From Thermodesulfobacteriota bacterium (lineage in GTDB: Bacteria > Desulfobacterota > WTBG01 > JAGOGO01): a stretch of DNA of 32,000 bases. Within the stretch, counting starts at the first letter, position 1. Each line of letters begins with the position of its first letter. A program made the position numbers and the translations under genes. The stretch spans positions 885,622-917,621 of the forward strand of contig CP113000.1 of NCBI GenBank assembly GCA_026625185.1, given 5' to 3'. Shown here in pieces: positions 1 through 24,950 of this stretch. Below the pieces are notes generated by a model. That model saw nothing but the letters and a program-made list of their open reading frames with translations. It was not told the origin of the DNA and did no database searches.

Positions 1-884
1 GGAGTTTAACCTTTACTGCTGAGGGAAAGTTAAAACCTGTTGAAAACAAACCAGTCCTTTCTTCGTGGATTGGAAATGGCACCGTATTTTTAGATGCTAT
101 GAGCTGCCAGGGTCTCGGCACCATCCAAAATCTTAAAAGTACCGGGTTTACGCTCGATAAAAACATTCTTCGTTTGTCATTGGAAGGCCTGTTGAATAGA
201 GGCCCCTCAGCAGTTCAATGCGTTATCGATTTCAGACAAAGTCGGCCGGTAATAAAATTAAACGGACAAGGAAAAGACATTGAGCTATCCGAAGACCAAA
301 CCATGTTGGATTATGTTATTCCGATCCGCTCCCGCTCTCGACAGCTAACCGGAAAAGGATTTTTTTCTTTCCAAACATCCTGGCAAGGATTCGATTGGGA
401 ACAAGAGATAAGCAGGAGCATCGTGGGAACCGGAAAAATAAGTTTAGAGGATGGAAGCGTTGAAACCGAAGGCGTCTTAAGCGAGATACTGACTGTTTTG
501 GGAAAATCTGAGTCGATTCAGTTTGACCAGGTTCAGAGTCCTTTCCGCCTTGGGGAAGGGAAAATTTATGATAACACTATCCAGGTAAACGGGCCCGATA
601 TCGAGATAACGTTTCAAGGCTGGACGTCCCTTATTTACGATCCTGAAAAAAAGGGGAACCCAATTAGGTATGCGGTAACCGGAGCTTCTTTTAAAAATTT
701 TCCGGGCAAAGATGCGCAAAAAATTTTACCTTTTCTTAGCGGAGAAAATGGCGCCATCCCGATTTACATTAAAGGTACCGTACAAAAGCCGAAAGTATCC
801 GTAAAATTTCGCAAGGCAAAAAAATTTTTTAAAGATTTTTTTAACCCCTCTAAAAATTCTTTCCATGATCTTGAGGGAGCGTGA
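1..884 (+). CDS. AsmA-like outer-membrane biogenesis protein, C-terminal part (5' end lies outside the window)
   Basis: The frame of ORF 99..884 is open from base 3 with no stop, so the gene runs off the left edge. The C-terminal sequence resembles AsmA/DUF3971-type C-termini from memory. TGA stop at 882-884. Confidence 0.45.
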   Translation, partial: SLTFTAEGKLKPVENKPVLSSWIGNGTVFLDAMSCQGLGTIQNLKSTGFTLDKNILRLSLEGLLNRGPSAVQCVIDFRQSRPVIKLNGQGKDIELSEDQTMLDYVIPIRSRSRQLTGKGFFSFQTSWQGFDWEQEISRSIVGTGKISLEDGSVETEGVLSEILTVLGKSESIQFDQVQSPFRLGEGKIYDNTIQVNGPDIEITFQGWTSLIYDPEKKGNPIRYAVTGASFKNFPGKDAQKILPFLSGENGAIPIYIKGTVQKPKVSVKFRKAKKFFKDFFNPSKNSFHDLEGA

Positions 885-955
885 AGCTCCGCAAAAGTTG
901 CTTTTTTTGTGCCAATTTAATATATTACAAAAAGGGTCCTAAATCACAACAAAAT

Positions 956-1042
956 GCGTCATTCCCGTCCCCACCTTCGCGGGGATAAACTCCAGCGGGA
1001 ATGCAGAAAAATACCGGATTCCGGTTCAAGCCTGAAATGACA
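956..1042 (-). repeat. REP-like element, family 1 (inverted copy)
   Basis: The reverse complement reads tgtcatttcaggcttgaaccggaatccggt...gggacgggaatgac. It shares the modules GTCATTCCGnnCTTGAnnCGGAATCC and GGAATGAC with the copies at 13116 and 14886. Confidence 0.7.
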
Positions 1043-1158
1043 ATATGCATATTTCATTGGGTATAGCAGGCTGTTAGAAAACCCCCTGATCCCTCTTTCG
1101 AAAAACGGGGGCTAAGGGTATTTAACAACGATGTTTTATGCACAGGAGGTATTTCTAG

Positions 1159-2679
1159 ATGCCGCCAAAAAAAATTGAAAGATTTGCCCAAAAAATTTTC
1201 CTGAGTATTCTGGTTTCAGGTTTATTCTTGATTTCTTTCTCCTTCTCCGGCTGTGCTGTTAACCCGGTTACGAGACAAACTCAGTTCATGACGGTTTCCG
1301 AAGAACGGGAATTTAACATGGGGCAGCAGCTGGATAAGCAAGTCCGGGAAGAGATGGGCTTTTATTTGGAAGTACCTGAGCTTCGCTCTTTAGTCAAGCA
1401 AACCGGGGGGGCTATAAGTCAGAATGGTGCCCGGGCCAAAACCCTTAACTATCGGTTTGAAATTGTGGACTCACCTGATTTTAATGCGTTTGCTTTGCCC
1501 GGGGGCTTTGTCTATGTCCACCGTGGGCTCTTGGATAAAGTAAACTCAACGGATGAGCTTGCCTCAGTGTTAGGGCATGAAATTGCCCACGTGGATGCCC
1601 GGCATTCGGCGGCTCTGATTTCCAAAGTCGAGTTGTTGAACATTGGACTTTTGGCAGCCAATGTGGCGACCCAAGGCGCTGTTCAGCAGTTCGGTGACTT
1701 AATAAATATAGGCGCGGTGTTAACGTTAAACAAGTTTTCCCGGGATGCGGAACGGGAAGCTGACCACTATGGAACACTCTATATGTCAAAATCTGGATAT
1801 AACCCCAAATCGTCTCTCGAAGTTATGAAGGCAATTCAACGGATTCAGGTTCGAGAGCCAAACAACGTTGAGACCTGGTTTATGACCCATCCCCCTACGA
1901 GTGAACGGCTGGTAAACCTAGATCACGAGATTGGCAACATTCAGCAGATTCAACCAACAGCATTGAACACCCCGATAAAACGAAATCAGTATATAAGGAC
2001 GCTTGACGGTCTGGCAGTAGGAGAATGGAATGGACAGGAATTAATAAGGGGAGATTACTATTACAACAAAGAATTTCTCCTTAAAATGAAATTGCCGGAA
2101 GGGTGGGAAGGCCAAATAAACAACAAAACATATACTGCTGTTTTTGGACAGCCCAAAAAAGATCTTTACGTAATGTTCAACGTCGAACCCTTAAGAACTC
2201 AGAAGACCTCTGAAGATTATTTTCGTGACTTTGAAAAAAAGCTGGGGCAACGTGGCCTGAAAAAAGATGGCACAACTTCCTCTAATACAAAATATGGCGG
2301 AGGAATAGGTGCCTACAAAGGATCAAGCGATAGCCTGGGCGCTATTAAGGGAGTTGGGTTTGCTTTTGTTAATGACATTAATGGCTATTCCCTGCTTGGT
2401 ATAAGCAAGACAGCTGATTTTCAAACATTTCGGCCGCTGGTGGAATCAATGGTCCAAAGCCTTACCTTTATCTCCCAAAAGGAAGCCGCTGACCTCCAAC
2501 CTGCTCGTCTGAAAGTCCATGAGGTAAAAGGGGGAGAGACCTGGGAAAGCATCATGAAAAAGTATTTTAGTACCTCGGAGGGAAAAGAAAAACTGGCCGA
2601 GTATAATGGACTGCTGGTTAACCAAAACCCTGCTGCGGGTATTCTCCTTAAGATCCCGCCCACACTCCACTTTCAATAA
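1159..2679 (+). CDS. M48-family zinc metalloprotease lipoprotein with C-terminal LysM domain
   Basis: SD aggagg at 1144-1149. Signal peptide with lipobox-like FSFSGC. HEIAH zinc motif (LGHEIAHVDARH). C-terminal HEVKGGETWESI...GILLKIP matches the LysM pattern. Confidence 0.85.
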   Translation: MPPKKIERFAQKIFLSILVSGLFLISFSFSGCAVNPVTRQTQFMTVSEEREFNMGQQLDKQVREEMGFYLEVPELRSLVKQTGGAISQNGARAKTLNYRFEIVDSPDFNAFALPGGFVYVHRGLLDKVNSTDELASVLGHEIAHVDARHSAALISKVELLNIGLLAANVATQGAVQQFGDLINIGAVLTLNKFSRDAEREADHYGTLYMSKSGYNPKSSLEVMKAIQRIQVREPNNVETWFMTHPPTSERLVNLDHEIGNIQQIQPTALNTPIKRNQYIRTLDGLAVGEWNGQELIRGDYYYNKEFLLKMKLPEGWEGQINNKTYTAVFGQPKKDLYVMFNVEPLRTQKTSEDYFRDFEKKLGQRGLKKDGTTSSNTKYGGGIGAYKGSSDSLGAIKGVGFAFVNDINGYSLLGISKTADFQTFRPLVESMVQSLTFISQKEAADLQPARLKVHEVKGGETWESIMKKYFSTSEGKEKLAEYNGLLVNQNPAAGILLKIPPTLHFQ

Positions 2680-2960
2680 CAGCGATAGGAAGACTTCTCT
2701 ACTTTCTGAATGAGAATGAAAAGCATAAACCTCGTTCCGAGCAATCTGACGGGGTTTTTTTCTGTTGTCTCGTTTGCCCCTGTCCAAGCTTGACAACGAA
2801 TTAGGGATAAAAATTTCTGAGCAAGGGGGCCCCGCCTTTTTCCCACAATGAATGGATTTATCCTATGTAAAAAATCCGTGGTTTCCCTGATAAAACCGGC
2901 CTCATAACCCTTGCCTTTTCTTGCAACCCTATTCTTGTAAGCAACACAAGAAAATCCCTG

Positions 2961-2990
2961 TTGAAATTCATAAGGGAGATAAGTTAGAAT
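2961..2990 (+). promoter_or_regulatory. Candidate sigma70-type promoter (TTGAAA - 18 nt - TAGAAT) for the GT4 leader
   Basis: Hexamers read directly at 2961-2966 and 2985-2990. It would give a roughly 265-nt leader containing repeat copy 1. Confidence 0.3.
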
Positions 2991-3121
2991 ATTTGCACCG
3001 AGTGCTGATATCGCCCTAAAAATAAGAGCATATCAGCATTACGTGACAATGTGCATGAGTTTGTTAACCATAGGGATCAAAAAGCCCCCCTTTTTTTTCA
3101 TGGTAAGATGCGGAATAATAA

Positions 3122-3239
3122 CAAGTTGCATTCAAAAGTAGATCGAGGCGGCGACGAGGAATCGACGCAGGCGTATATTTTTGTACGTCGAGGAGTATGA
3201 CGAGGAGCCAACAAAGATATACAAATGAAGGCAACTTGG
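3122..3239 (+). repeat. 118-nt structured repeat, copy 1 (5' leader of the GT4 gene)
   Basis: Differs at 4 of 118 positions from 7584-7701, in the same orientation. The ends caagttgcattca / tgaaggcaacttg are inverted complements. The interior is GA-rich with four CGAGG/ACGAGGA units and a gcgta..tacgt hairpin. Confidence 0.85.
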
Positions 3240-3262
3240 TATAAGGTGAAAGGTAGGAATCG

Positions 3263-4423
3263 GTGAAGATTGCCCTGATTCGAAAAGACTATTCTCTTGC
3301 CTGGGGAGGGGCGGAGCGCTACGCGGTCAATTTGAGTGAATGCCTGGCCAGAATGGGGCATGAAGTCCATGTGTTTGCTAATACGTGGAGCAGGCCCCCT
3401 GATCATGGGATTTCAATCCATAAAGTTCCTATCTTAACCATTTCTTCTTCGTTAAAAAATTTATCATTTGCTTATAATTGTCGAAAACTTCTTGCCCGTG
3501 AAAATTTTGACATAGTCCATTCCCTCTCCCAGACTTTTTCCCAGGACATATACCGGATGGGAGACGGCATCCACCGACACTGGCTTACCATACAGACCCC
3601 CAATTTTTTTTACCGCTTTTTAAAAACCTTAACTCCCCGGCAGCAGGTTATTTTATTCCTCGAAAAAAAGACGTTTCATCCTTTACAGTATAAAATGATT
3701 ATTTGCATCTCTCAACTTTGCAAAAAACACGCTATGAGTTACTTTAAGGTTCCGGAGGAGAAGATCCGTGTGATTTATAATGGCGTTGATCACGCGCAAT
3801 TTAATCCGGGCTTAAGGAACCGGTACAATAAGGAAATTCGCAAAAAATTACAGATACCCGAGGAAGCCGTCGTTATTCTCTTCATCGCGAACAACTTTAA
3901 ACGAAAAGGACTAAAGCATCTTCTTCAATCTCTTCCCTTAATCCAAAGAGGGAAAGAACCCCTAACCGTTTTAGTGGTTGGCCGGGGCAATCCTCTTCCG
4001 TTCCGCCGCATTGCGGAGCAGATTGAGCTGTCCGACCAATTACTTTTTGTGGCGCAAACTGATAATATTTTTCAGTATTATGGAGTTGGCGATATCGTCG
4101 CGCACCCTGCTCTCTCTGACCCCTTCTCCAATGTTTGTTTGGAAGCGTTAGCCTGCGGAATTCCCGTTATAACGACGAAAGAGACCGGAGCCTCAGAAAT
4201 CATTCGTCCCGAAGAAACCGGGGTTGTCATCTCAGACCCTCATGACCATGCGGCATTAGCCGCCGGCATTTCCCGTTTTCTCCCGCACGAGGTAAGGGAT
4301 TTGGTGAGAAAAAAAGCTTCTCAATCTGTCCAAAATTTTACCATTGAGGAAAATACCCTTAAAACTTTGAAAGCTTATAAACAGGTTCTGGAGATAAAAA
4401 AACATAAAGGCGGTTTTCAATAA
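3263..4423 (+). CDS. Glycosyltransferase family 4 (GT-B, WaaG/RfaG-like)
   Basis: GTG start. N-terminus MKIALIRKDYSLAWGGAERY and C-terminal E-x7-E region (LEALACGIPVITTKETGASEII) are typical of GT4 enzymes. Confidence 0.85.
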   Translation: MKIALIRKDYSLAWGGAERYAVNLSECLARMGHEVHVFANTWSRPPDHGISIHKVPILTISSSLKNLSFAYNCRKLLARENFDIVHSLSQTFSQDIYRMGDGIHRHWLTIQTPNFFYRFLKTLTPRQQVILFLEKKTFHPLQYKMIICISQLCKKHAMSYFKVPEEKIRVIYNGVDHAQFNPGLRNRYNKEIRKKLQIPEEAVVILFIANNFKRKGLKHLLQSLPLIQRGKEPLTVLVVGRGNPLPFRRIAEQIELSDQLLFVAQTDNIFQYYGVGDIVAHPALSDPFSNVCLEALACGIPVITTKETGASEIIRPEETGVVISDPHDHAALAAGISRFLPHEVRDLVRKKASQSVQNFTIEENTLKTLKAYKQVLEIKKHKGGFQ

Positions 4424-4480
4424 ATGGAACAAAAAATTTACTAAAGCAGCGGTTGATTCCGATTCGTGGTTTCTGAAAAA

Positions 4481-4528
4481 GTTTACCCCGTTAGAAACCC
4501 AGTTAGATATCAAATAGCTAACAGGGGG
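4481..4528 (+). repeat. REP-like hairpin element, family 2
   Basis: Reads tttaccccgttagaaacccagttagatatcaaatagctaacaggg. The same tttaccccgttagaaa head and CCnGTTAGAT-N7-ATCTAACnGG hairpin occur at 28934-28990. Confidence 0.7.
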
Positions 4529-4586
4529 AAGAAGCAGGGTGTAAATCCCATTAGAAAATTTTCTTACTGGATGAATGCCTTGCTTG

Positions 4587-4616
4587 CCCTGTCAGATTCC
4601 AAAATATCTAACCGGG
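4587..4616 (+). repeat. REP-like hairpin element, family 2 (hairpin module only)
   Basis: Reads ccctgtcagattccaaaatatctaaccggg, an imperfect version of the 28960-28988 hairpin. Confidence 0.6.
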
Positions 4617-4796
4617 TGAAAAATTCCTCCAAGGGGGTTTACAAAGTTGGCGAAGAAGTCACAACTTTTCTGATTCAAATAAAGCAGATTGACATTAATT
4701 AATGTTTAAATTATAAATTCATTTTATTTCAGATAAAAAGGCACGGAATCCGCTTCAAGAATTCAAAATCATAATTTTGTCTGGGAGGATAACGTG

Positions 4797-5732
4797 ATGT
4801 CTAAAGGCATCTTTTTTTTATTTTTTTTGTTTTTTTTTGTTTTTACCAACGCTGTTAAGGCGGCTGAGCCCGAACAACATCTTGTGATTCTCTATAATAG
4901 TGATACTAAAGGCTATATAGAGGGCTGCGGTTGAAAGCACGAACAAGGGGGACTGGCCCGGCGGGCCGGCTTAGTGAAAGAATTGAGAGAGAAAAATAAA
5001 AACACCATCCTTCTGGACGGTGGGGACTCTATTTCCGCAGGGAAGGATCTCCCTGAACTAAGGGCTGAAATCAGTATGGAGGCATTAGGCCTCATGCATT
5101 ATGATGCACTTAATATAGCTGACGGAGAATTGGGTTTGGGTGAAAAATTTTTTCAAGATCTCCAAAAAAAAGTTTCGTTTCCCTTATTATCCGCCAATCT
5201 TTTTAAAAACAAAAAGCTTTTAGGCCAGGACTATCTCATAAGGAAATTTGAAGGATTTACCGTGGGTATCATTGGCCTAGTTTCTCCAATCTATTTTAAT
5301 CCCGAACTCTTAGCCAAAGAAGGTTTAGAGATCAAAGACCCGGAAGAAACCCTTAATGAAATTTTACCTAGGTTGAAGTCAGAGGCAAGCATCATTATCC
5401 TCCTTTCCCACTTAGGTAAAAATGAGACCACCTTGTTACTCCGAAAGATGTCCGGGGTCAATGTGGCGATTGTCGGACATGATCCGGGAATGCTTAACCA
5501 GCCAGCATTATGGAACAAAACGATTTTGGTACAAAACAGTTCGCAGGGAAAATTTCTCGGAGTCTTAGATCTTACCATAGGAACAAAGGGAGTCATAGAA
5601 AATTATACCGTAAACATGGTTAACATTACGGAGAATACTCCTTCTGACCCGGAGGTTATCGCTCTCATTCGTGAGTTTAAAAAAAAGAAAAACTCTCAAC
5701 CCCCTCAAACAAAACAAAAGCGCCCTGAATAA
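4797..5732 (+). CDS. Secreted calcineurin-like metallophosphoesterase / 5'-nucleotidase-like protein interrupted by one in-frame TGA (4932-4934): Sec candidate or pseudogene
   Basis: SD gggagga at 4783-4789. ATG 4797 opens the signal peptide MSKGIFFLFFLFFFVFTNAVKA. The frame is continuous with tracked ORF 4974..5732 except for TGA at 4932. Downstream sequence (GGLARRAGLVKELR...ILLDGGDSISG..., GHD) is metallophosphoesterase-like. Confidence 0.6.
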
Positions 5733-5763
5733 GGGATAATGTATTTGCCCTCCAAAAAAACAT

Positions 5764-6558
5764 ATGGTGACCATTGTAATCCCTCACTATCAGACCCTCG
5801 AGATTATAAGATTATGCCTGAGGTCCATTCGAAAGTTTACCCCCCAACCTTATAAAGTAATCGTTGTTGATAATGATTCTCAGGATGAATCTCTTGAATA
5901 TTTGAAATCCGTTAAATGGCTACACCTTATTCAAAGAAAAGAGGTGGCGAAAAGGGGGTCCTGGGCTCATGGTTCAGCATTGGATATTGGACTCACGAAT
6001 ACCCAGACAGAATTTTTTCTTGCTCTCCACTCCGATGTAATGATTAAGGACTCCTCCTGGCTTAATAAGCTGCTTGCCCCTCTTCAGCAAAATCCTGCTT
6101 TATTTTGTGTGGGAACGGGAAAGTTAGAGGATGTTCCCTTGGCCTATCGAGTATTTAAAAAAATGGGGGACGTAAAAGGACTCCTTCGTTTTTTGAAGAC
6201 CGACCTTCTTCGCCACCCTGACCGGATTCTCCCCGAGTATATTCGAACCACCTGTGCCGTCTATCGAACTGAAATCTTAAAAAAAGAAAGGTTATCTTTC
6301 CTTCCTCGCGAGGAGCAGGGAATGACCTCCGGGCAAGCTCTCTATTATGAACTGGTTAAAAGAGGATACCAAACCCTTTACCTTCCTCCAGGAGAATTAA
6401 AAAAAATGATTGACCACCTATGCCACGGCACCATGATTTTAAACCCTGAGCTTGGGGCACGAAAACGAACAATATCAAAAGGCATCCGAAGGATCAAAAG
6501 AGAACTGAGCGAAGGATGGATAAAAAGTCTTTTAAAAGATTCTACCTTGGATCAGTAA
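5764..6558 (+). CDS. Glycosyltransferase family 2
   Basis: N-terminus VTIVIPHYQTLEIIRLCLRSI...VIVVDNDSQDES is the classic GT2 (GT-A) signature. Confidence 0.8.
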   Translation: MVTIVIPHYQTLEIIRLCLRSIRKFTPQPYKVIVVDNDSQDESLEYLKSVKWLHLIQRKEVAKRGSWAHGSALDIGLTNTQTEFFLALHSDVMIKDSSWLNKLLAPLQQNPALFCVGTGKLEDVPLAYRVFKKMGDVKGLLRFLKTDLLRHPDRILPEYIRTTCAVYRTEILKKERLSFLPREEQGMTSGQALYYELVKRGYQTLYLPPGELKKMIDHLCHGTMILNPELGARKRTISKGIRRIKRELSEGWIKSLLKDSTLDQ

Positions 6559-6580
6559 ACTCCGTAAGAAGGCTTTTTCA

Positions 6581-6609
6581 CCCTGTTAGCCATTTGATAT
6601 CTAAACGGG
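6581..6609 (+). repeat. REP-like hairpin element, family 2
   Basis: Reads ccctgttagccatttgatatctaaacggg, with the same stem/loop layout as 4501-4528 and 28960-28988. Confidence 0.55.
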
Positions 6610-6706
6610 TTTCTAACTGAGTAAAAACGTGGCAATGAAGAAGTAAGCTGCAAAAAAAGTTTTACAAAAATCAAAAAACCAACTCATATAAGACTCAACT
6701 ACCACT

Positions 6707-7564
6707 ATGAAATCTTTGCCTTTACCAAGCAATTTAGTCTTCCGCAACCATATGGTTATTAACCGAGAGTTCGAACCCTTGTTAAAAGAAAACGGTTTAG
6801 ATGATTTTGATGCAATGATGAAATTCGATAAAGGGGAAGTAGTTAAACAAAAAAGCAAATACCGCTCTACCATTCATTTTTATCTTACAGAAAAAGAACG
6901 CAGGGTTTCCGTTTATCTTAAGCGTTACCGCTTTTCTTTGATATCCGAGTTTGTGAAAAATTGCTTCTTTTTTTTTCGAACCTATTCGGCTATTTATGAA
7001 TGGAGATGCATCCTTAAATTTAAGGCATCCAATCTCCCTACCATGACCCCTATTGCCGTGGGAATGCGACGGCGAATTCCTTTTTGGAATGAATCCTTCC
7101 TTTTAACCCAAGGAATTACACCTACAAAAACCCTCGAACAAGAATTGGAAAATTATCCCCCTCCCCTGGATAGTATTCGGGTACAACAAAAAAGGGTCTT
7201 GATTGCTAAACTGGCAGCGCTTACCCAGAGAATGCATGGGGAGGGCTTTAAACATCAAGATTTCTACCTATGCCATATCTTGGTAAACTCAAGTGTTCCA
7301 GATGATCCTCTCCTTTATGTTGCCGATCTCCACCGGGTGAGGAGAAAGAAAAAAAATAACAAAAGCTGGCAAATCAAAGACCTGGCCGCGCTTAATTATT
7401 CTGCTTCCCAGAAATTTATAAGCCGAACCGACCGGCTCCGATTTATGAAACACTATGACCCGATTTTAGCCAATGACCTTCTCTTCCTTAAAAAGATAGT
7501 GAAAAAGACCGCGCAAATTCAAAGCCATGAAGAAAAAAAAGATAAAAACTCACATCGGGCGTGA
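6707..7564 (+). CDS. Lipopolysaccharide kinase (Kdo/WaaP) family protein
   Basis: Motifs HQDFYLCHILV and YVADLHRV match the Kdo/WaaP kinase catalytic-loop pattern. It sits among glycosyltransferases. TGA stop at 7562. Confidence 0.75.
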   Translation: MKSLPLPSNLVFRNHMVINREFEPLLKENGLDDFDAMMKFDKGEVVKQKSKYRSTIHFYLTEKERRVSVYLKRYRFSLISEFVKNCFFFFRTYSAIYEWRCILKFKASNLPTMTPIAVGMRRRIPFWNESFLLTQGITPTKTLEQELENYPPPLDSIRVQQKRVLIAKLAALTQRMHGEGFKHQDFYLCHILVNSSVPDDPLLYVADLHRVRRKKKNNKSWQIKDLAALNYSASQKFISRTDRLRFMKHYDPILANDLLFLKKIVKKTAQIQSHEEKKDKNSHRA

Positions 7565-7583
7565 TGCGAGCTTAGACTCATAC

Positions 7584-7701
7584 CAAGTTGCATTCAAAAG
7601 TAGATCGAGGCGGCGACGAGGAATCGACGCAGGCGTACATTTTAGTACGTCGAGAAGTATGACGAGGAGCCAACAAAGATATACAAATGAAGGCGACTTG
7701 G
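7584..7701 (+). repeat. 118-nt structured repeat, copy 2 (overlaps SD and probable start of larE)
   Basis: See copy 1. The 3' arm tgaaggcgacttgg contains GAAGG (7689-7693) and TTG (7698-7700). Confidence 0.85.
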
Positions 7702-8555
7702 CATCAAAAGCTAATTCCCTGCGAAAAATCCTTCGGGAGATGGGACGAATACTGCTTGCTTTTTCAGGGGGAGTGGATAGCGCTTTTCTCCTTAAAATCG
7801 CGTATGAAGAATTGGTTGAGAATGTTCTCGCAGTTACCGCTGTTTCTCCAATTCACCCAACGGAAGACTATGAAAGCGCTTGCCGGATTGCGCGTTCTTT
7901 CAAAATAAAGCACATGGTGATCGAAACCAATGAACTAAAAAACCCCAACTTCTGGAGCAACCCTCCTGACCGATGTTATTTTTGTAAAAAGGAACTTTTT
8001 CAGACATTACAAGCTATCGCTCGCCAAAAAAACATCGCTTTTGTGATTGATGCCAGCACCATTGATGATTTATCAGACTTTCGGCCGGGAAGAACCGCGG
8101 CGCAAGAAGAAGGCATAAGAAGTCCGCTTATAGAAGCGAGGTTTACCAAAAAAGAAATTCGGACCCTCTCCCAAGAAATGGGATTGCCGACCTGGAATAA
8201 ACCCTCCATGGCGTGCCTGGCATCAAGGTTCCCGTACGGCGAGTTCATTAGTCTTGAGAAGATAAACCGCGTGGCTCGCGCGGAGAATTTTCTTCGGGAC
8301 TTCGGCTTCAGCCAGGTCCGGGTAAGAAGTCATGATAAACTTGCCCGCATTGAAGTTGATGCTGAGGACATTCAAAAACTTACTAATCCTGAACTTCGTG
8401 AAAAAATTATTAACGAGCTAAAGCATCTGGGCTTTATTTATGTCACCATTGACCTTGAAGGTTATAGGACCGGAAGTCAAAATGAAGTTTTGACGGTTTC
8501 GGGGGACGCAAAGAGCAAAGAGCCTGGAGCAGGGGGCGAGGATTATATTTCGTGA
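7698..8555 (+). CDS. larE: LarE-like PP-loop ATP-dependent sulfur transferase (ATP-utilising enzyme of the PP-loop superfamily)
   Basis: PP-loop AFSGGVDSAF. CLASRFPYGE matches the LarE Cys-containing SRFPYG motif. The C-terminal FIYVTIDLEGYRTGS is typical. The tracked ORF start at 7527 reads through the repeat. TTG 7698 gives a 20-residue lead-in to the PP-loop, as in characterised LarE. Confidence 0.75.
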   Translation: MASKANSLRKILREMGRILLAFSGGVDSAFLLKIAYEELVENVLAVTAVSPIHPTEDYESACRIARSFKIKHMVIETNELKNPNFWSNPPDRCYFCKKELFQTLQAIARQKNIAFVIDASTIDDLSDFRPGRTAAQEEGIRSPLIEARFTKKEIRTLSQEMGLPTWNKPSMACLASRFPYGEFISLEKINRVARAENFLRDFGFSQVRVRSHDKLARIEVDAEDIQKLTNPELREKIINELKHLGFIYVTIDLEGYRTGSQNEVLTVSGDAKSKEPGAGGEDYIS

Positions 8556-8628
8556 AACGTGAGCACGTAATGCGTGAAGTGTTTTAACACCTTACGCTTT
8601 ACGATTTTCATTTCACGTTTTGTTTTTT
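8554..8628 (+). terminator. Long imperfect hairpin plus T-tract after larE (probable intrinsic terminator)
   Basis: Arms gaaacgtgagcacgtaatgcgtgaagtgtt / aacaccttacgctttacgattttcatttcacgtttt, followed by ttttgtttttt. Confidence 0.45.
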
Positions 8629-8629
8629 C

Positions 8630-8790
8630 TTGACATTTTCATTGGTTAGTTTTACAAAACACTAAATATCAACCCCAAAAAAGAATAGGGACGGAAAGGA
8701 ACCGGGAGTCTTTTATGGGAAGAATTTTTAAGACTGATGAGGAATAAAATAAGGCCGAATCGCCGGACATAAAGGTGATAGGCCTTTTTG
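8630..8790 (+). ncRNA. ORF-less promoter-leader-terminator module (candidate sRNA or decayed higA cassette), paralogue of 19025-19191
   Basis: TTGACA (8630-8635) - 17 nt - TACAAA, then an AACCCCAAAAAAG box. Terminator aaggcc..atcgcc..ggtgat..ggccttttt at 8751-8790 is about 82% identical to 19149-19190. No ORF longer than 10 codons. Confidence 0.3.
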
Positions 8791-8817
8791 GTTTCGGGAC
8801 TCAGCTTAGTTGGTGGC

Positions 8818-8992
8818 TTCGAACCGGCTTATACAGTCTGTATAAGACCGGAGCTATCAAAACAACAAAATGGTTTAACAATATAATATTATATGATATT
8901 TATAATTTATTAGAAAAAATCGGAAACGTCTTATACAGAAAGCAACAGTCTGTGTTTGCTGTATTATACAGACTGTATAATCAGTGTTAGAT
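8818..8992 (+). mobile_element. attC-like site (long, 175 bp) preceding the first cassette
   Basis: R''-like TTCGAAC (8818-8824) and consensus R' GTTAGAT (8986-8992). A 17-nt arm ttatacagtctgtataa (8829-8845) is the exact complement of ttatacagactgtataa (8964-8980). Confidence 0.35.
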
Positions 8993-9008
8993 TAAGGAAG
9001 TTAGCTAA

Positions 9009-9593
9009 ATGAATATACGAAGTCTACAATACGGAATAACAATATGCGCTCTACTGGTTGCACTTGCGCATATCATATGGCCAAGTCTTACTATTGATGC
9101 CATCACTGTTACTCTAATTTTCATTGCGTTAGTTCCGTGGTTAGCGCCCCTGTTCAAATCACTCGAACTCCCTGGTCGATTGAAAATTGAATTCCAGGAC
9201 TTTGAGCGTGCGCGGACAAAGGCTGATAAAGCAGGGTTGTTAAGTGAGTTTCCACGAATTGAATCCGAAAGACAATACTCATTCCAACTCGTTGCACAAG
9301 AAGACCCGAAACTAGCGTTGGCGGGGCTTCGTATTGAGATTGAAAAACGATTAACCGAAATAGCTGAATCGAATAACATAAACCCGGAAAAGGCAGGCAT
9401 AGGCCGTTTGTTAAGGATCTTAGGAGAAAGACAATTGCTATCTCAAGAGCAACGCTCCGCATTAGCAGACATGGTAGGTTTACTCAATTCAGCGGTTCAT
9501 GGGGGAGAAATAGATAATCGGGCTGCTGAATGGGCATTAGATGTTGGTCCAAGGCTAGTCAGTGCATTAGAGGCCAAAGTAAATAAAATCTAA
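9009..9593 (+). CDS. Hypothetical membrane protein (two N-terminal TM helices plus helical C-terminal domain), cassette-borne
   Basis: ATG 9009 with aaggaag upstream. Hydrophobic stretches ITICALLVALAHIIW and ITVTLIFIALVPWLAPLF. The stop TAA lies inside the attC R'' box. No family recognised with confidence. Confidence 0.6.
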   Translation: MNIRSLQYGITICALLVALAHIIWPSLTIDAITVTLIFIALVPWLAPLFKSLELPGRLKIEFQDFERARTKADKAGLLSEFPRIESERQYSFQLVAQEDPKLALAGLRIEIEKRLTEIAESNNINPEKAGIGRLLRILGERQLLSQEQRSALADMVGLLNSAVHGGEIDNRAAEWALDVGPRLVSALEAKVNKI

Positions 9594-9644
9594 CCAACCA
9601 ATCCACCGGACGGCTTTCAGCCGCCGGTGATCGGTACGTTAGGC
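9588..9644 (+). mobile_element. attC recombination site (57 bp)
   Basis: R'' ATCTAAC (fits RYYYAAC) and R' GTTAGGC (fits GTTRRRY). Arms CAACCAATCCACCGGACGGC / GCCGCCGGTGATCGGTAC pair except for two extra bases (C, A) on the R''-L'' arm. Central loop is tttca. Confidence 0.6.
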
Positions 9645-9694
9645 TGCTGGTTTGATGACATTGATTGCTTGATATAATTGAGGAGAACTATGGC

Positions 9695-11116
9695 ATGAAT
9701 GAACTTCTGTTTGATCCCGCAACGCACCGCAAAGCAGGTCGTCTTCTGGGAGAACTCCTGGCGAACTATGAAATTGATCTCTTGAATCAACCTGTGTTAC
9801 CACAAATCAATCGAGACGCCATGCGAGCGATCCTTACTGAACCCCTCCCAGAAGAGGGAAAACCGCTTGAGGAACTGTTTCAAGAATTCCGAGATGTTGT
9901 TGTGCCAAATTCTACTCACGTGGCGCATCCGCGTTTTCTCCCTTACGTGCTTCCCTCACCAAATGGCATCTCAGCGTTTGCCGATGCCCTGGCAAGTACC
10001 CTCAATCAGAACTGTAATCTCTGGACGCTGTCACCTGCGGCAAATGCCATTGAACAACGCGTCATTTCCTGGTTTAACGAATTATTCTCGTTTCCCAAAG
10101 GCAGCGGCGGCATCATTACAAGCGGTGGCTCAATGGCTAACCTGACGGCTCTTGCGGTAGCTCGCGATACGTATATCGGGAATACAGCGAGAACGGAAGG
10201 GGTTCAGGGGAGGACATCACCGCTGATACTCTATGTTTCAGAAGAGGTGCATAATAGTGTTGACAAAGCTGCCGTGATCCTTGGACTTGGGCTGAATAAT
10301 GTTCGTCACATCCCGTGTGACTCGCAGTTTAGGATGTGTATGGACCTCCTTAAAGATGCCATATTCCGAGATCGCCGTGAGGGCTTGAGCCCGTTCTGTG
10401 TGGTTGGCTCAGCCGGAACAGTCACGACAGGGGCGATTGATCCGCTTGATACTCTGGCAGATTTTTGTGGAGAGGAACGCTTGTGGCTTCACATTGATGG
10501 GGCCTATGGCGCTCTAGCCATTCTCAGCGAAAGAATGCAGGCACAGTTATTGCCTGCAGGCCGAGCGCATTCGCTGTCACTCGACCCTCACAAATTACTC
10601 TTCAACCCTCTGGAGGCCGGATGTGTGCTTGTACGAAATGCTGAAGACATGCGGTCAACGTATAGTTTCATTCCAAGCTATCTTTCGATGGTGTCTGACA
10701 GCGACTTTCTGAACTATGCGGAATATGGCCCGCAACTTTCACGGAGTTTTAAGGCCCTGAAGGTGTGGTGGTCATTACGAGCCTACGGACGAAAAGCGTA
10801 TGCGAGGGCGATAGAGAATCTATTTGACCTTGCCTCATATATGGGTGAACGGATTCAAGCCGAAGCAGAGTTGGAACTGGTGGCACCAGTCACGTTGAAT
10901 GCGGTGTGTGTACGATGTCGCAATCTCACTGACTCCCAGAATGAGAGTGTGCTTGCACGCCTGCTATCCGAAGGGATAGCGTTCCTTGGCAGGGCACAGG
11001 TGAAGGGGAAGTTCTGTCTCCGAGCCTGTTTCATGAATTTACGAACAACGCGTGAGGATGTGGATCATATCCTTGAGGAGATGATCCGTTTCGGAGAAGA
11101 GGAACTTAGAAATTGA
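9695..11116 (+). CDS. Group II PLP-dependent amino-acid decarboxylase (aromatic-L-amino-acid / tyrosine decarboxylase-like), cassette-borne
   Basis: SD gaggag at 9680-9685, 9 nt before ATG 9695. Motifs SGGSMANLTALAVAR and SLDPHKLL (PLP lysine) are typical of the DDC/GAD/HDC family. Confidence 0.85.
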   Translation: MNELLFDPATHRKAGRLLGELLANYEIDLLNQPVLPQINRDAMRAILTEPLPEEGKPLEELFQEFRDVVVPNSTHVAHPRFLPYVLPSPNGISAFADALASTLNQNCNLWTLSPAANAIEQRVISWFNELFSFPKGSGGIITSGGSMANLTALAVARDTYIGNTARTEGVQGRTSPLILYVSEEVHNSVDKAAVILGLGLNNVRHIPCDSQFRMCMDLLKDAIFRDRREGLSPFCVVGSAGTVTTGAIDPLDTLADFCGEERLWLHIDGAYGALAILSERMQAQLLPAGRAHSLSLDPHKLLFNPLEAGCVLVRNAEDMRSTYSFIPSYLSMVSDSDFLNYAEYGPQLSRSFKALKVWWSLRAYGRKAYARAIENLFDLASYMGERIQAEAELELVAPVTLNAVCVRCRNLTDSQNESVLARLLSEGIAFLGRAQVKGKFCLRACFMNLRTTREDVDHILEEMIRFGEEELRN

Positions 11117-11154
11117 ACAGTAGGTTGGATAAGATACTGTAAATAAATTGTTTC

Positions 11155-11293
11155 GCCTAACAAATGCGTGGAAGTGACTTTGGGGGCGCGCGCCAGTTTT
11201 AACTTACGTGCTTTCGGTAACGTTCAGTGGTGGTGTCAGCGTCGTTGCCCGTTGTCAGAGCGTCCCCAAAGCCCCTCACGCCGGTCGTTGGCC
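11155..11293 (+). mobile_element. attC-like site (139 bp)
   Basis: R'' GCCTAAC (fits RYYYAAC) and R'-like GTTGGCC (one mismatch). Arm gcctaacaaatgcgtggaagtgactttgggggcgc is an imperfect complement of gcgtccccaaagcccctcacgccggtcgttggcc. Confidence 0.5.
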
Positions 11294-11305
11294 CAAATAA
11301 TATAA

Positions 11306-11926
11306 ATGAATAATATATACCCTGACATCGAGTGGTATATCGGCATCAGTTGTGAAAAACAACTATCTCCTCACTGTCCCTTTGCGAACGTTCACAGATG
11401 CCCTCGTTATTAACAATCTCTCGCGTTGCTGGGCGTAAAAGGTCAAATGACTGAAATACCTAAAGAAGAAGATACGGCACTTCTCAACAAATGGCAGTCT
11501 ACAGACGTATGGCCGATAGTCAGAGAGCATGCGACAGCGATTAGCGGGAGTAATTGGAAAAGTACTCATTATACGAATTTTTGTCCTGAAATAAGCTACG
11601 ACAAATTTGGTTTATTCGCATCAATGCTTTGCACTTACATCGATGAAATTGATAAAGAGGCAGCAGAGAAATTACTGATTGAAAACGGACGGTCGCAGGC
11701 AAAAGACTGGCGATGGAATTGGGCATATGTCGTACCTCTACATTATTCGGAGTGCCCGATATATTCTCAACTGCCAGTTCAGTTCTCTGTTGCTACTCCT
11801 CCTCAGAATCATAAAGAGGAAATATTATCTGTCAAGCCTGGCATTTTCGGCGTATCAATTGATTTGCGTAGAAACAGCCGGGACGCCGCACAAATCACCC
11901 TTCAGCATCTATACATGACGAACTAA
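11306..11926 (+). pseudogene. Hypothetical Cys-rich protein gene interrupted by an in-frame TAA (11411-11413), cassette-borne
   Basis: ATG 11306 gives MNNIYPDIEWYIGISCEKQLSPHCPFANVHRCPRY, then TAA. The same frame continues into tracked ORF 11426..11926 (QSLALLGVKGQMTEIP...). Confidence 0.45.
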
Positions 11927-12054
11927 TTATTTGCGCATACGTTACAACACCCTTCGACAAGCTCAGGGTGACCGGTCGTGGTGAGCCTGTCGAACCATGT
12001 GCAGGGTATTCTCTTGGCAATGATAGCCATGCGCAATTGTTTATAACGTTGTGT
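11917..12054 (+). mobile_element. Degenerate attC-like site closing the cassette patch
   Basis: Outer pairs GACGAAC / GTTGTGT (5 of 7 complementary), ttgcgcat / atgcgcaa, and ttcgacaagctca / tgagcctgtcgaa. Both core boxes deviate from consensus. Confidence 0.3.
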
Positions 12055-12080
12055 ATAATAAAATTAAAAGATTATGAGAT

Positions 12081-12110
12081 CCTGAATCAAGTTCAGGAAT
12101 TATTTTTTTT
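12081..12110 (+). terminator. Intrinsic terminator candidate
   Basis: cctgaa-tcaag-ttcagg hairpin followed by aattatttttttt. Confidence 0.45.
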
Positions 12111-12127
12111 ATTACGTGGGTTTTATA

Positions 12128-13084
12128 ATGAAAGCACTAATCTTTGATGGAAAAATCCGCATAGAAAAAAACCTCCCAATTCCGAGAAGAAAGCCTTTTG
12201 AGGCGCTCATCCGGGTCTTAAAAGCAGGAATTTGTCAGACTGACTTGGAGATCATAAAAGGCTATCTTCATTTTCAAGGAATATTAGGGCATGAATTTGT
12301 TGGCATCATTGAGGAGAGCCAAAATCAAGAACTTTTAGGAAAAAGAGTGGTTGGGGAAATCAACCTTGCCTGTGGAAAGTGTATATATTGTCAAAAAAAA
12401 ATGCCTTCCCACTGTAACGCCCGTTCAGTCTTAGGAATAAAAGATAAAAATGGTTGTTTTGCTGAATATATCACCCTGCCGATAGAAAATATTCACGTAA
12501 TTCCTGATTCAATTTCTGACGATGAAGCAATCTTTGTAGAGCCTTTAGCTGCTGCCCTGCAAATCCTCACCCAAGTCCATATCCGACCTCAAGATGATGT
12601 CGTAATTTTAGGAGATGGCAGGTTAGGACAATTATGCGCCCAGGTCATGAGTCTAACCGGAGCCCAAGTACTGACAGTAGGAAACCATCTGAAAAAATTA
12701 AAGATCCTCAAAAAAAGGGGGATAAAAACTTGTAGATTTGATGAAATTTCCCAAAAAAAATCCGATGTTGTAATAGAATGCACTGGGTCTCCGGCTGGTT
12801 TCAACGCTGCCTTAAACTTGGTCCATCCGCGGGGGACCATTGTTTTAAAGAGCACCTACGAAGTTAAACCATCAATAGATCTGGCGCCGATAGTCATTGA
12901 TGAAATAACGATTATAGGGTCTCGCTGTGGTCCTTTTCCTCCCGCCATTCGTCTCTTAGAAAACAAAATCATTGATGTTCTCTCGCTTATCTCCCAAAGG
13001 TTTTCCCTCGATAACGCTCTTGTGGCTATCAAGGCGGCACACCAGAAAGAAAACCTCAAGATCATCTTAGACATAAGCAAGTAA
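12128..13084 (+). CDS. Zinc-dependent alcohol dehydrogenase (MDR) family protein
   Basis: ATG 12128 (MKALIFDG). Catalytic-zinc region CQTDLE...GHEFVG. Structural-zinc cluster CGKCIYCQKKMPSHC. Confidence 0.8.
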   Translation: MKALIFDGKIRIEKNLPIPRRKPFEALIRVLKAGICQTDLEIIKGYLHFQGILGHEFVGIIEESQNQELLGKRVVGEINLACGKCIYCQKKMPSHCNARSVLGIKDKNGCFAEYITLPIENIHVIPDSISDDEAIFVEPLAAALQILTQVHIRPQDDVVILGDGRLGQLCAQVMSLTGAQVLTVGNHLKKLKILKKRGIKTCRFDEISQKKSDVVIECTGSPAGFNAALNLVHPRGTIVLKSTYEVKPSIDLAPIVIDEITIIGSRCGPFPPAIRLLENKIIDVLSLISQRFSLDNALVAIKAAHQKENLKIILDISK

Positions 13085-13115
13085 TGTAGTGATTCAGAAA
13101 TGTCTTAGCTTTACT

Positions 13116-13182
13116 TGTCATTCCGGGCTTGACCCGGAATCCAGTGTTTTTGGGCTGGATTCCCGCTTTCGCGGGAATGACG
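13116..13182 (+). repeat. REP-like element, family 1
   Basis: Reads tgtcattccgggcttgacccggaatccagtgtttttgggctggattcccgctttcgcgggaatgacg, two hairpin modules. Confidence 0.75.
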
Positions 13183-13300
13183 GCCCCGGAATTTATGTAA
13201 AGAAGTGTTAGATTCGCTACACTAAGAGGGTAATAGCAGCGGCTTAGATCAGGGAAGATATTTTATCTTTCTGATGATTTTATCAACACAATGTATTTCG

Positions 13301-13330
13301 TTGACAAATAAATACAATATATGGTAGAAT
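13301..13330 (+). promoter_or_regulatory. Candidate promoter TTGACA - 18 nt - TAGAAT
   Basis: Hexamers read at 13301-13306 and 13325-13330, about 80 nt upstream of the small ORF at 13409. Confidence 0.4.
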
Positions 13331-13408
13331 TTAAAAAATTAACTGAACAGAGTTTTCAAATAAATGGTATAAAATTTCGGAAAATCAAGAGGAGGAGATA
13401 AAAAAACC

Positions 13409-13615
13409 ATGGGAAGCTTAATTCTTGATTTCCAACATAAAGTTAATCCGTTGCATATCTATTGTCGGCTTCTTGACAAAGGGTTTGCCCCGCGAATTTC
13501 TCTCCGTCTAAGTCGTTGTTATGAAATTTTAATTTATAAGTGGCTATCCCCTCTGACTTTTTTTTTAATCTTCTTTTATCGATCAGTTAAAAAAAATAAA
13601 ATTTCGAAGAATTAA
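13409..13615 (+). CDS. Small hypothetical protein (68 aa, C-terminal hydrophobic helix)
   Basis: Strong SD aagaggaggag 8 nt upstream of the ATG. Consensus-like promoter upstream. No family recognised. Confidence 0.45.
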   Translation: MGSLILDFQHKVNPLHIYCRLLDKGFAPRISLRLSRCYEILIYKWLSPLTFFLIFFYRSVKKNKISKN

Positions 13616-13631
13616 TCTGCCGAAAATATTT

Positions 13632-14540
13632 TTACGGTGGGCATTGGGCACAGATCGAGGTAAAAAGAGCAGTACTAAGATATCTGTCACCACGATCAGG
13701 GAAAAGCACCACTATCGTTCCTGACCTCATTGATTGAGCGAACTTCAAAGCGCCCGCCAAAGCGGCTCCACTGCTCATTCCCACAAAGATGCCTTCTTCC
13801 ACCGCCAACTGCCTGGCCATACTAAAGGCAGGTTCATCATCAATGATGATTCGTTCGTCAAGTTTTTTAGGGTTAAAAATTTTAGGAACAATAGACTCCT
13901 GCATATTTTTTAATCCCTGAATTCGATGCCCTAAAGTCGGCTCAATTCCAACAATTTTAATTTTGGAATTAAATTCTTTCAACCGCTGTCCTGTTCCCAT
14001 TAAGGTAGCGGTTGTTCCCATCCCTGCCACGAATGCATCAATCTCCCCTTTCGTTTGTTCGATAATTTCCGGGGCGGTTCCTTCATAATGAGCTTTTACA
14101 TTATTGGGATTGGAATATTGGTCGGGCATGTAATAGATGCCAGGATGGTTTTCAAAAATCTGGTAGGCCCGGCGAATCGCGCCATCTACCCCTTGATTTG
14201 CCGGACTAAGTTCAATTTCGGTGCCAAACGCCTCCAAAATCCTTCGCCTTTCTTCGCTCACGCATGCTGGCATGACCAGTTTTGCTTTATATCCTTTGGC
14301 GGCTGCAACCATGGCCAGACCAATGCCCGTATTCCCGGATGTTGGCTCTAATATAATTTTATCCTTCGTGAGTTCACCGCTTTTTTCGGCTTTTTCTACC
14401 ATACATAAGGCCGGACGATCTTTGACAGAACCCCCAGGATTAGATCCCTCCAGTTTAGCCAAAATCCTAACCTTTTTGTGGGGATTAATTTTATTGATTT
14501 CAACCAGCGGGGTTTTCCCGATTAACTTTAAAATACTCAT
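13632..14540 (-). CDS. cysK: Cysteine synthase (O-acetylserine sulfhydrylase family, PLP-dependent)
   Basis: Motifs NPGGSVKDRPA (PLP lysine), TSGNTG and GTGGT-like loop. Unusual C-terminal tail ...SICAQCPP. Confidence 0.9.
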   Translation of the reverse strand: MSILKLIGKTPLVEINKINPHKKVRILAKLEGSNPGGSVKDRPALCMVEKAEKSGELTKDKIILEPTSGNTGIGLAMVAAAKGYKAKLVMPACVSEERRRILEAFGTEIELSPANQGVDGAIRRAYQIFENHPGIYYMPDQYSNPNNVKAHYEGTAPEIIEQTKGEIDAFVAGMGTTATLMGTGQRLKEFNSKIKIVGIEPTLGHRIQGLKNMQESIVPKIFNPKKLDERIIIDDEPAFSMARQLAVEEGIFVGMSSGAALAGALKFAQSMRSGTIVVLFPDRGDRYLSTALFTSICAQCPP

Positions 14541-14797
14541 TTTTTCCCTTACGCTTAACGTTTTGATGTGTTGTTTATTAAACCTCTGGAATTCAGAGTT
14601 GTTTTTTTATAAAATATTTTAGGAAAATATACAAAGAAACAAGTAAAATAACAAAATATTTTTTTATTAGTTTAATTTTTATAAATTTTTCTGCAAATTT
14701 TTCCTGACATCGGTAAAATTCCGGGAGGTGTGGGATCGTCTTTTTTTGAGTCTGTCTTCTTGCCATTATCCCTTGGAATTTTTCACCCCCATAGAAC

Positions 14798-18219: not shown

Positions 18220-18274
18220 CTACTGCCCTGTTACTTTTCGTAATCGCTGTCAGGAAAGAACCTCCCGCTTTTTC

Positions 18275-18303
18275 TTGACTTTTCCTCTCAATAACATTAA
18301 AGA
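18275..18303 (+). promoter_or_regulatory. Candidate higA promoter (TTGACT - 17 nt - TAAAGA) followed by palindrome CCCCAAAAGGGG
   Basis: Hexamers read directly. The 12-bp palindrome at 18320-18331 lies between the -10 and the start codon, a likely autoregulatory operator. Confidence 0.35.
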
Positions 18304-18344
18304 AAAAAGAAATCTTTAACCCCAAAAGGGGATACTTTCTTATC

Positions 18345-18647
18345 ATGAAAAAACAGTTGCATTCAGTGTATCCCGGAGAAGTCCTCTTGGAAGAATTTCT
18401 AAAGCCCATGGGTATAAGCCAGAATAGACTCGCCTTAAATATCGTGGTGCCGGCACGAAGAATAAACGAGATTGTTCTTGGGAAACGAAGCGTCACGGCG
18501 GATACCGCCCTGAGACTTGCGAAGTTCTTCGGCGCCTCTGCCGAATTCTGGCTGGGATTGCAGGCGCAATACGACCTGGATGTTACTGCCGAGGCGCTGG
18601 GAGAACGACTGGAGCGTGAAGTCGAAAGACAGGCTCACGCCAGATAA
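18345..18647 (+). CDS. higA: HigA-family antitoxin (XRE-type HTH), no toxin gene adjacent
   Basis: PGEVLLEEFLKPMGISQNRLALNIVVPARRINEIVLGKRSVTADTALRLAKFFG is the canonical HigA/VapI HTH. The 125 bp upstream cannot hold a higB. Confidence 0.85.
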   Translation: MKKQLHSVYPGEVLLEEFLKPMGISQNRLALNIVVPARRINEIVLGKRSVTADTALRLAKFFGASAEFWLGLQAQYDLDVTAEALGERLEREVERQAHAR

Positions 18648-20058: not shown

Positions 20059-20471
20059 GCATGTCACTAACTAACCATTCGCTCAAGACGACCGAATGGA
20101 CGTACAACGAATACCCACGCGTGTAAATGGGAAGCGCAAGATTGAAATTTATGAATTCGCGCGGCGGTAGTGGTAAATTAAAAGGAAACGTTTCGGCAGC
20201 AGATGAAAGGACGGGACGTTGTTGAGAATTAACTCTTCAGTAAGTTCGCCACACTCCATTCATCGCGTATAGTGGCGTATCGCAATCCCCTCTTGATAGG
20301 GGTGTCACGAAGTGACGGGGTGTGTTGAGGAGTGTTTGATTTCTTTTGTCACGATTATTAGTCAAGGCATAAATATGACCGTACTTAATGCCCCCTCATT
20401 TCCATCCTCTCCCCGGCGGAAAGGGGAAATCATTAGAATTTATCTCTACCTTTGCGATAGGACCTGAATAA

Positions 20472-23740: not shown

Positions 23741-23752
23741 GGCCGATGGACG

Positions 23753-24949: not shown

Positions 24950-24950
24950 A

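Follow-up and report, generated by a model that had tools for sequence, protein, structure and literature searches.

How is a TGA codon decoded when it falls early in the frame of an otherwise intact gene for an exported protein? This question is raised by positions 4797 to 5732 of the window, the 32,000-nucleotide stretch of Thermodesulfobacteriota DNA analysed here, where a forward-strand frame opens with an ATG at 4797, meets TGA at 4932-4934 and then runs on unbroken for 265 sense codons up to a TAA stop at 5730-5732. An earlier reading, made from the nucleotide sequence alone (hereafter the sequence-only reading), had proposed that the TGA encodes selenocysteine (Sec) in a secreted metallophosphoesterase, and had named a recent nonsense mutation as the competing explanation. 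In our assessment, which draws on comparisons with relatives of the gene, the TGA at 4932-4934 very probably does stand for selenocysteine, in a gene for an exported protein that resembles 5'-nucleotidases.

Layout of the gene

Read through the TGA, the coding sequence (4797-5732, + strand) comprises 311 codons plus the stop and would encode an UshA-like selenoprotein of the short form, with codon 46 read as Sec. The elements that frame it can be read directly and are those originally described: a Shine-Dalgarno-like GGGAGGA at 4783-4789, 7 nt 5' of the ATG; the triplets TGC GGT TGA at 4926-4934, which spell Cys44-Gly45-Sec46, the CxU motif of the family; and a frame open to 5732, for which the standard ORF list gives only the segment 4974-5732. 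That segment corresponds to a truncated ORF of 252 amino acids called in public annotation (P0001 in our searches; WAC08399.1, 'hypothetical protein'). The first 22 residues (4797-4862) were likewise correctly picked out, as far as inspection can tell, as a signal peptide: the N-terminus MSKGIFFLFFLFFFVFTNAVKA|AE has the appearance of an export signal of the Sec type, with cleavage inferred after VKA. Equivalent hydrophobic N-termini are present in the orthologues, and in the structural model of one of them, the Cys-containing P0002, the N-terminal helix is predicted with low pLDDT. P0002 and P0003, two full-length homologues with Cys, run colinear with the recoded sequence from the signal peptide on. 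A scan for promoters and terminators around the gene returned hits at chance level only.

Elsewhere in the window, as had been noted before, TGA is an ordinary stop (of ORFs that end at 884, 7564, 8555 and 11116), and it terminates 6 of the 21 large ORFs, which are well supported and matched at full Pfam coverage; there is therefore no change of the genetic code.

Assignment to the UshA-like selenoproteins

With U replaced by C, the best NCBIfam match of the protein is NF041198, 'UshA-like (seleno)protein' (E = 6.5e-53, 180.1 bits), which covers residues 7-302 and positions 2-307 of the 519 in the model; the SoxB, UshA and CpdB models match below it. The sequence-only reading did not recall this enzyme family among known selenoproteins, and in this it was mistaken. 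'COG0737, UshA-like', with the motif CxU, is a listed selenoprotein family, represented by 76 Sec sequences in the 2008 GOS study, where it was grouped with families characterised earlier (Zhang & Gladyshev 2008, PMC2398784), and it appears again in reviews of 2022 and 2026 (PMC9312934, PMC13188914). The family has thus been known in bacteria since at least 2008, and because it is already catalogued, the call made here is a correct one and not a new discovery. The protein has both the COG0737-type homology and the Cys-x-Sec motif, which vindicates the pair C-G-U as proposed, CxU being the signature motif of the UshA-like selenoproteins. It shares with the literature family the same homology, a Sec placed two residues after a Cys, and homologues with Cys in its place, although the literature entries are table listings, likened to our protein by homology and motif, and the protein itself is 311 residues long and carries GCGU rather than PCGU.

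Two curated models describe UshA-like selenoproteins, and neither reaches the short form. NF041198 (UshA_like_PCGU, a 519-position equivalog) has in common with our protein the column of the CGU/C and the stretch GGLARRA, but its cutoff of 275 bits is not attained, and its C-terminal half, which resembles a multihaem cytochrome c554 (PF13435) and is present in P0051 and P0101, is absent from our protein. Short-form relatives score 170-187 bits against this model, whereas long forms with the cytochrome domain score 276-390 and pass the cutoff. The second model, NF049981 (UshA_like_Sel_2, 262 positions), is of similar length and a distant homologue (E = 1e-15), but it gives only 57.9 bits against a cutoff of 140, and its motif is CxxU where our protein has CxU. 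The gene is a new and currently mis-annotated member of a known selenoprotein family, and the short form is arguably the seed of a third UshA-like subfamily.

The TGA position among relatives

A search of 5.8 billion proteins recovered the identical 252-residue truncated product, P0001, which is present on 5 contigs, as well as about 25 clusters of orthologues at 58-80% identity, all of them 252-258 residues long and cut at the same point. For relatives, DNA was taken from genomes in GTDB, from metagenomes at JGI and from single contigs. Aligning orthologues at the TGA column, a check that the sequence-only reading had called for, showed that 17 distinct loci among the fetched relatives have TGA and 7 have Cys, and it is on this column that the assignment of 4932-4934 to selenocysteine is based. 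The TGA-bearing loci span Thermodesulfobacteriota, Myxococcota, Neomarinimicrobiota and others. Eleven of the 17 belong to close orthologues and read GCGU; L152, from a clade that shares 46% protein identity, has PCGU, with the U at the same column; and the remaining ones are long-form genes with PCGU or CPGU in MAGs of Syntrophaceae, Myxococcota, Neomarinimicrobiota and FCB. Cys stands at this position in the full-length homologues P0002 and P0003 (both ..YIEGCGCK..), P0032 (..SCGCK..), P0051 and P0101 (both ..CGC..), and P0045. Opposite the UGA, homologues invariably have Cys; Trp and Gly do not occur there.

The same column bears on three other readings of the locus. One attributes the TGA to an error of sequencing or assembly in the window, a thought suggested by the long T-runs nearby (4812-4845), which are error-prone in some technologies. 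Independent assemblies of this organism, on the other hand, have the identical TGA (L001 and L150, both at 100%, and L151, a Logan SRA assembly), and an NCBI MAG contig of 100% identity shows the same split into 45 and 252 amino acids; with orthologues carrying the TGA too, we regard an error as scarcely conceivable.

A second reading holds that a recent TGC- or TGG-to-TGA nonsense mutation has killed a Cys-containing UshA-like gene and left a pseudogene. Orthologues of the Cys form do exist (P0002, P0003, L067), and public annotation treats the gene as broken. The mutation would, however, have to account for 17 distinct loci of several phyla that share this TGA; beyond it, the frame is open, conserved at 58-80% identity, and free of further stops or frameshifts. 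A dead gene is on these grounds highly improbable, and the evidence supports a clear preference for the selenocysteine reading over the nonsense mutation.

According to the third, the locus gives two products, a secreted 45-residue peptide that stops at the TGA and an independent, cytoplasmic protein of 252 residues that starts at GTG 4974. This is how both JGI and NCBI call the locus, and the GTG is possible as a start. A protein begun there, however, loses its signal peptide and strand 1 along with CxU and the GGLARRA motif found throughout the family, parts that are colinear in the Cys homologues and belong to the fold; no Shine-Dalgarno sequence was seen before 4974, and conservation runs on across the TGA. 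Two separate products are accordingly most unlikely. Taken together, the recurrence of the same TGA in 17 loci and in independent assemblies renders nonsense mutation, sequencing error and two genes untenable, and leaves selenocysteine as the reading that we follow below.

A hairpin downstream of the TGA

No other 17-mer of the gene is as rich in GC as 4953-4969 (94% GC, against 41% for the gene as a whole), and this stretch folds as the sequence-only reading had predicted, with a core stem of 7 bp (4953-4959 paired with 4963-4969) around a GGC loop at 4960-4962. Two or three weaker pairs extend the stem to 4949-4972, for a folding energy of -14.2 kcal/mol. The hairpin is encoded by the codons of GGLARRAGL, and its loop lies 28 nt past the U of the UGA. 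In the bacterial SECIS (bSECIS) model, a stem-loop is found just 3' of the UGA, with its apical loop about 16-37 nt away and a G in the loop. SECIS loops of the E. coli type have GU, and the GGC loop seen here is without it.

The hairpin is real, though its energy alone is not above chance. Its stability does not exceed that of dinucleotide shuffles (z = -0.56), nor significantly that of 3000 synonymous re-codings of the same peptide in the codon usage of the window (p = 0.06-0.17), because the peptide GGLARRAG is inherently GC-rich and self-complementary at the nucleotide level. No SECIS or other credible Rfam match appeared in a gathering-threshold scan of the window or in a permissive scan of 4880-5030.

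Comparison with orthologues is more telling. The stem is kept in 11 of 11 Sec orthologues, and the L152 clade, for all that it shares only 46% protein identity, carries the same 21 nucleotides, GGACTGGCCCGGCGGGCTGGT; conservation of the hairpin, the absence of which would have counted against the original proposal, is thus what we observe. The changes in the stem among Sec orthologues are from G-C to G-U, with one double change from G-C to A-U and one change from A.C to A-U that extends the stem. As covariation this amounts to a single double change among the 10 Sec orthologues analysed, which is not significant, 220 of 500 shuffles having equalled it. Codon choice gives a clearer signal. When only residues invariant across nine orthologues are considered, mean codon entropy is 0.49 bits at the nine hairpin codons against 0.89 at the other 60 four-to-six-fold sites, and a single codon is used at 4 of the 9 hairpin codons against 8% of sites elsewhere (permutation p = 0.008). 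Synonymous constraint of this kind is not expected in a dead gene, and together with the distribution of the TGA it effectively refutes the pseudogene.

Of the five Cys forms whose DNA was in hand, the hairpin is broken in three: in L145 and L146 the stem is disrupted by the amino-acid changes A->P and R->L, and in L154, where Arg-Arg is written AGA AGA, there is no hairpin. A weak remnant persists in L155, and in L067 the hairpin is unchanged. The long-form PCGU genes have a hairpin of another kind, CUUGGC-GGUCUU-GCCAGG, which begins 15 nt past the UGA and shows true compensatory changes; its GGUCU loop, at +22, is like that of E. coli, whereas the gene in the window has a GGC triloop at +28. 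On the strength of the fold and the comparison of orthologues, we consider 4949-4972 the probable SECIS of this gene.

Selenocysteine machinery

None of selA, selB and selD was found among the roughly 27 Pfam-annotated ORFs of the window, which also contains no tRNAs, tRNA-Sec included, and ARAGORN found no tRNA-Sec in the fetched loci. Among these loci, a tblastn search (with an E. coli SelD query) detected selD on L145 only. A link to Sec decoding comes from MAGs that overlap the window. Positions 1-7634 are 100% identical to JARDUJ010000093.1 of MAG GCA_029216095.1 (Thermodesulfobacteriota bacterium), and positions 7644-14664 are 99.99% identical to JARDUI010005129.1 (L160) of MAG GCA_029216075.1. 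The latter MAG also contains a 431-kb contig (L156) with a selD gene in the cluster YedE-TusA-...-cysteine desulfurase-TusA-Se_S_carrier-SelD, and the N-terminus of this SelD (..TTTVKGAGU ASKLGPGDL..) is obtained by reading through an in-frame TGA. A SelD that itself contains Sec implies full Sec decoding. The same selD locus is present in both JGI samples that contain the window sequence, and its tetranucleotide composition correlates with that of the window at 0.95, compared with 0.97 for one half of the window against the other. The link between this selD and the window is indirect and would hold through MAG binning and composition, not through one shared contig.

Downstream of the TGA of the L156 selD there is an 8-bp hairpin with a GGG triloop. 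A comparison of the hairpins of Sec- and Cys-containing selD genes gave no discrimination between the two.

That the window itself offered no directly found Sec machinery would fit yet another reading, in which the UGA is read through without Sec, either by a near-cognate tRNA for Trp or Cys or under a reassigned code (table 4 or 25). Code reassignment is excluded because TGA serves as a normal stop and the residue that aligns here is Cys. The wider reading has against it the same two observations, the well-supported ORFs that end in TGA and the constancy of Cys in homologues, as well as the membership of the protein in a curated selenoprotein family and the Sec-type selD of the associated MAG GCA_029216075.1, so that we give it very little credence. 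With selenocysteine as the preferred reading, the UGA at 4932-4934 would be decoded by the standard bacterial route, in which Sec-tRNA(Sec) would be brought by SelB bound to the mRNA hairpin at 4949-4972, and the single gene 4797-5732 would yield an exported protein with a mature form of about 289 residues.

Fold, active site and possible role

With U replaced by C, the protein has no Pfam match at E <= 0.1, Metallophos included. Profile and pairwise alignments to solved structures, however, place it with the N-terminal domain of CD73, UshA and Thermus 5'-nucleotidase (profile E = 1e-38), and more weakly with SoxB. The AF2 model of P0002, which is 72% identical to our protein, has a pLDDT of 92.9 and matches the N-terminal domains of 5'-nucleotidases in Foldseek with TM scores of 0.75-0.83 and E-values of 1e-24 to 1e-21; it covers about half of each 5'-nucleotidase target, with target-normalised scores (TMt) of about 0.45-0.5. 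As judged from this model, the protein has the N-terminal calcineurin-like fold of 5'-nucleotidases. That fold is common to the canonical enzymes (E. coli UshA, human CD73 and Thermus 5'-nucleotidase) and SoxB, but the canonical 5'-nucleotidases combine complete dimetal and catalytic motifs with a 5_nucleotid_C substrate-binding domain, and our protein, which ends at residue 311, is without either. The initial label 'metallophosphoesterase' therefore holds at the level of the fold; it fails in that Pfam Metallophos does not match, catalytic residues are replaced and the C-terminal domain is absent.

Four residues, D36, D77, H205 and H228, match the metal ligands of 5'-nucleotidases, and their counterparts in CD73 are D36, D85, H220 and H243. 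The motif GD is kept along with H205 and H228. The motif DxH, in contrast, has become D-T-K and GNHE has become A-D-G-E, so that three canonical catalytic residues are missing; in CD73 numbering, H38 is replaced by Lys and N117-H118 by Asp-Gly. Across the fetched loci the two features are mutually exclusive: relatives that keep ND-x-H never carry the Cys/Sec motif, and genes with CxU or CxC lack that His.

Cys44-Gly45-Sec46 is the most conserved N-terminal feature of the protein. In the P0002 model the pair is placed in the loop that connects strand 1 to helix 1, where the pLDDT dips to 78. In the profile alignment this loop has a Cys at the Sec column in CD73 and in snake-venom 5'-nucleotidase, and that Cys is disulfide-bonded. 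In long-form relatives the same domain is fused to a multihaem cytochrome. Since the C-terminal substrate domain is absent and three catalytic residues are missing, we infer that the protein probably has a redox function in the periplasm and is not a nucleotidase. C44 and U46 might form a redox-active selenenylsulfide that would serve as the working centre, and the biochemical role could be that of a periplasmic redox or chalcogen-handling enzyme, not of a phosphoesterase. Genes with CxU or CxC have at the same time lost the catalytic His motifs, and this confines the hypothesis to a redox role other than phosphatase activity.

Annotation and genomic neighbourhood

Pipelines split the gene into pieces of 45 and 252 amino acids because it scores 180 bits where the cutoff is 275, and for the organism of the window as well as about 25 relatives the NCBI and JGI records accordingly hold a divided gene, annotated as 'hypothetical protein' or '5'-nucleotidase'. 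An additional, third model would bring in an entire clade of Thermodesulfobacteriota selenoproteins, and so would a lower cutoff. What is known of Sec decoding and of the families that use Sec is unchanged by this gene; the novelty that remains would lie in a short-form clade with its own type of hairpin and an apparently remodelled active site. One could go further and see in the short UshA-like proteins that lack the cytochrome domain (GCGU or PCGU, 290-360 amino acids) a distinct selenoenzyme family missed by current models. In such a family the dimetal site of 5'-nucleotidases may have been remodelled around a Cys-x-Sec redox centre, and an unusual triloop hairpin rich in G (CC-GGC-GG, no GU), similar to the one behind the TGA of the L156 selD, may direct Sec insertion. 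We hold this stronger proposal to be rather unlikely.

A screen of the window for other frames that join up across a TGA gave two candidates. The one at 18144-18645 was rejected as a selenoprotein gene, a HigA-like antitoxin beginning after the TGA, and the one at 20461-21160 was not convincing.

More distant members of the family are found in unrelated gene contexts, and context therefore does not identify the function. Within the lineage of the window the arrangement is constant: the gene is directly followed on its 3' side by a GT2 glycosyltransferase, and the order GT4 - gene - GT2 - Kdo/WaaP kinase is fixed (L147-L149). This fixed place among genes of the LPS-core type (GT4, GT2 and Kdo/WaaP kinase) may hint at a role in the cell envelope.

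The long-form hairpin and the reading frame

The long-form UshA-like selenoprotein genes, which carry a C-terminal multihaem cytochrome half, have a common SECIS-like hairpin of their own, CUUGGC-GGUCUU-GCCAGG, which differs from that of the short form and starts 15 nt after the UGA. Across the long-form PCGU genes compared (loci L017, L018, L023, L028, L031, L038, L039 and L005), this hairpin shows compensatory changes from U-A to G-C and from C-G to U-A that span phyla, and in two Cys forms (L006 and L007) its loop reads GGC in place of GGU.

In the short-form selenoprotein gene of the window, the signal-peptide region FFLFFLFFFVF is encoded by successive T8, T8, T9 and T5 runs (4812-4845). 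Homopolymer tracts of this kind are prone to slippage and to sequencing error; the frame through them is intact both in the window and in independent assemblies. The orthologue in L003, a locus of the long-read assembled MAG CAVTQE01, has extra stops and frameshifts past the Sec codon (about 3200-3940; ..GGDSI*RRCKFPH..), which probably reflect assembly indels rather than decay of the gene.

Association with selenium metabolism

On a 2.5-kb contig (L145), a Cys-type selD (..SGGCGSK..; 2-559, minus strand) lies next to, and divergent from, the Cys-form UshA-like orthologue P0002 (876-1787), a single case of such a neighbourhood that hints at a link between the UshA-like protein family and selenium metabolism. 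A selenium-handling cluster found in three further selD loci (L156, L157 and L158; about 375-6942) encodes a YedE-like Sulf_transp protein, TusA, HGD-D, BcrAD, an Aminotran_5 desulfurase/lyase, a further TusA, Se_S_carrier and SelD. The SelD of this cluster is interrupted by an in-frame TGA (GAGU), downstream of which lies a hairpin with an 8-bp stem and a GGG triloop, and most database SelD matches from this lineage, at 313-316 aa, show the same N-terminal truncation.

Repeats around the selenoprotein gene

The selenoprotein gene and the adjoining GT2 gene are bracketed by a 54-nt inverted repeat (4482-4535 and 6572-6625), seen in the window genome only, whose arms are 87% complementary and each partly palindromic in themselves. 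The left arm falls within a 78-aa ORF (4466-4702) for which no homologues were found and which is probably spurious.

Another repeat, direct and about 125-130 nt long with copies 94-97% identical, occurs at 3113-3242 and 7575-7704 in the window, at 556-685 and 5889-6009 in L003, and at 59-185 and 2508-2628 in the locus L068. Inverted repeats of 9 nt form its termini (CCAAGTTGC...GCAACTTGG). It can be folded as a long, imperfect hairpin (about -39 kcal/mol) and always stands, in constant orientation, 20-40 nt upstream of the start of a GT4, GT2 or PP-loop gene. Its conservation is 94-97% even where the proteins of the genomes compared share only about 66% identity, yet it is absent at the syntenic loci L147-L149. 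Since short-read contigs end within it (window 7634 and 7644), the repeat probably exists in multiple copies. A MITE-like element and a leader RNA are both possible identities for it, and a search of Rfam gave no match.

Other genes of the window

Further downstream, an ORF for an XRE-family, HigA-like antitoxin (18345-18647; ..RLALNIVVPARRINEIVLGKRSVTADTALRLAKFFG..) is surrounded by several short ORFs with no Pfam match (18.2-22.6 kb). In the region 22664-28944, cdaA, encoding a diadenylate cyclase, adjoins a DHH/DHHA1 phosphoesterase gene, and after this pair come a GNAT gene and a cluster of hemE, ferrochelatase and amine-oxidase-type (HemY-like) genes.
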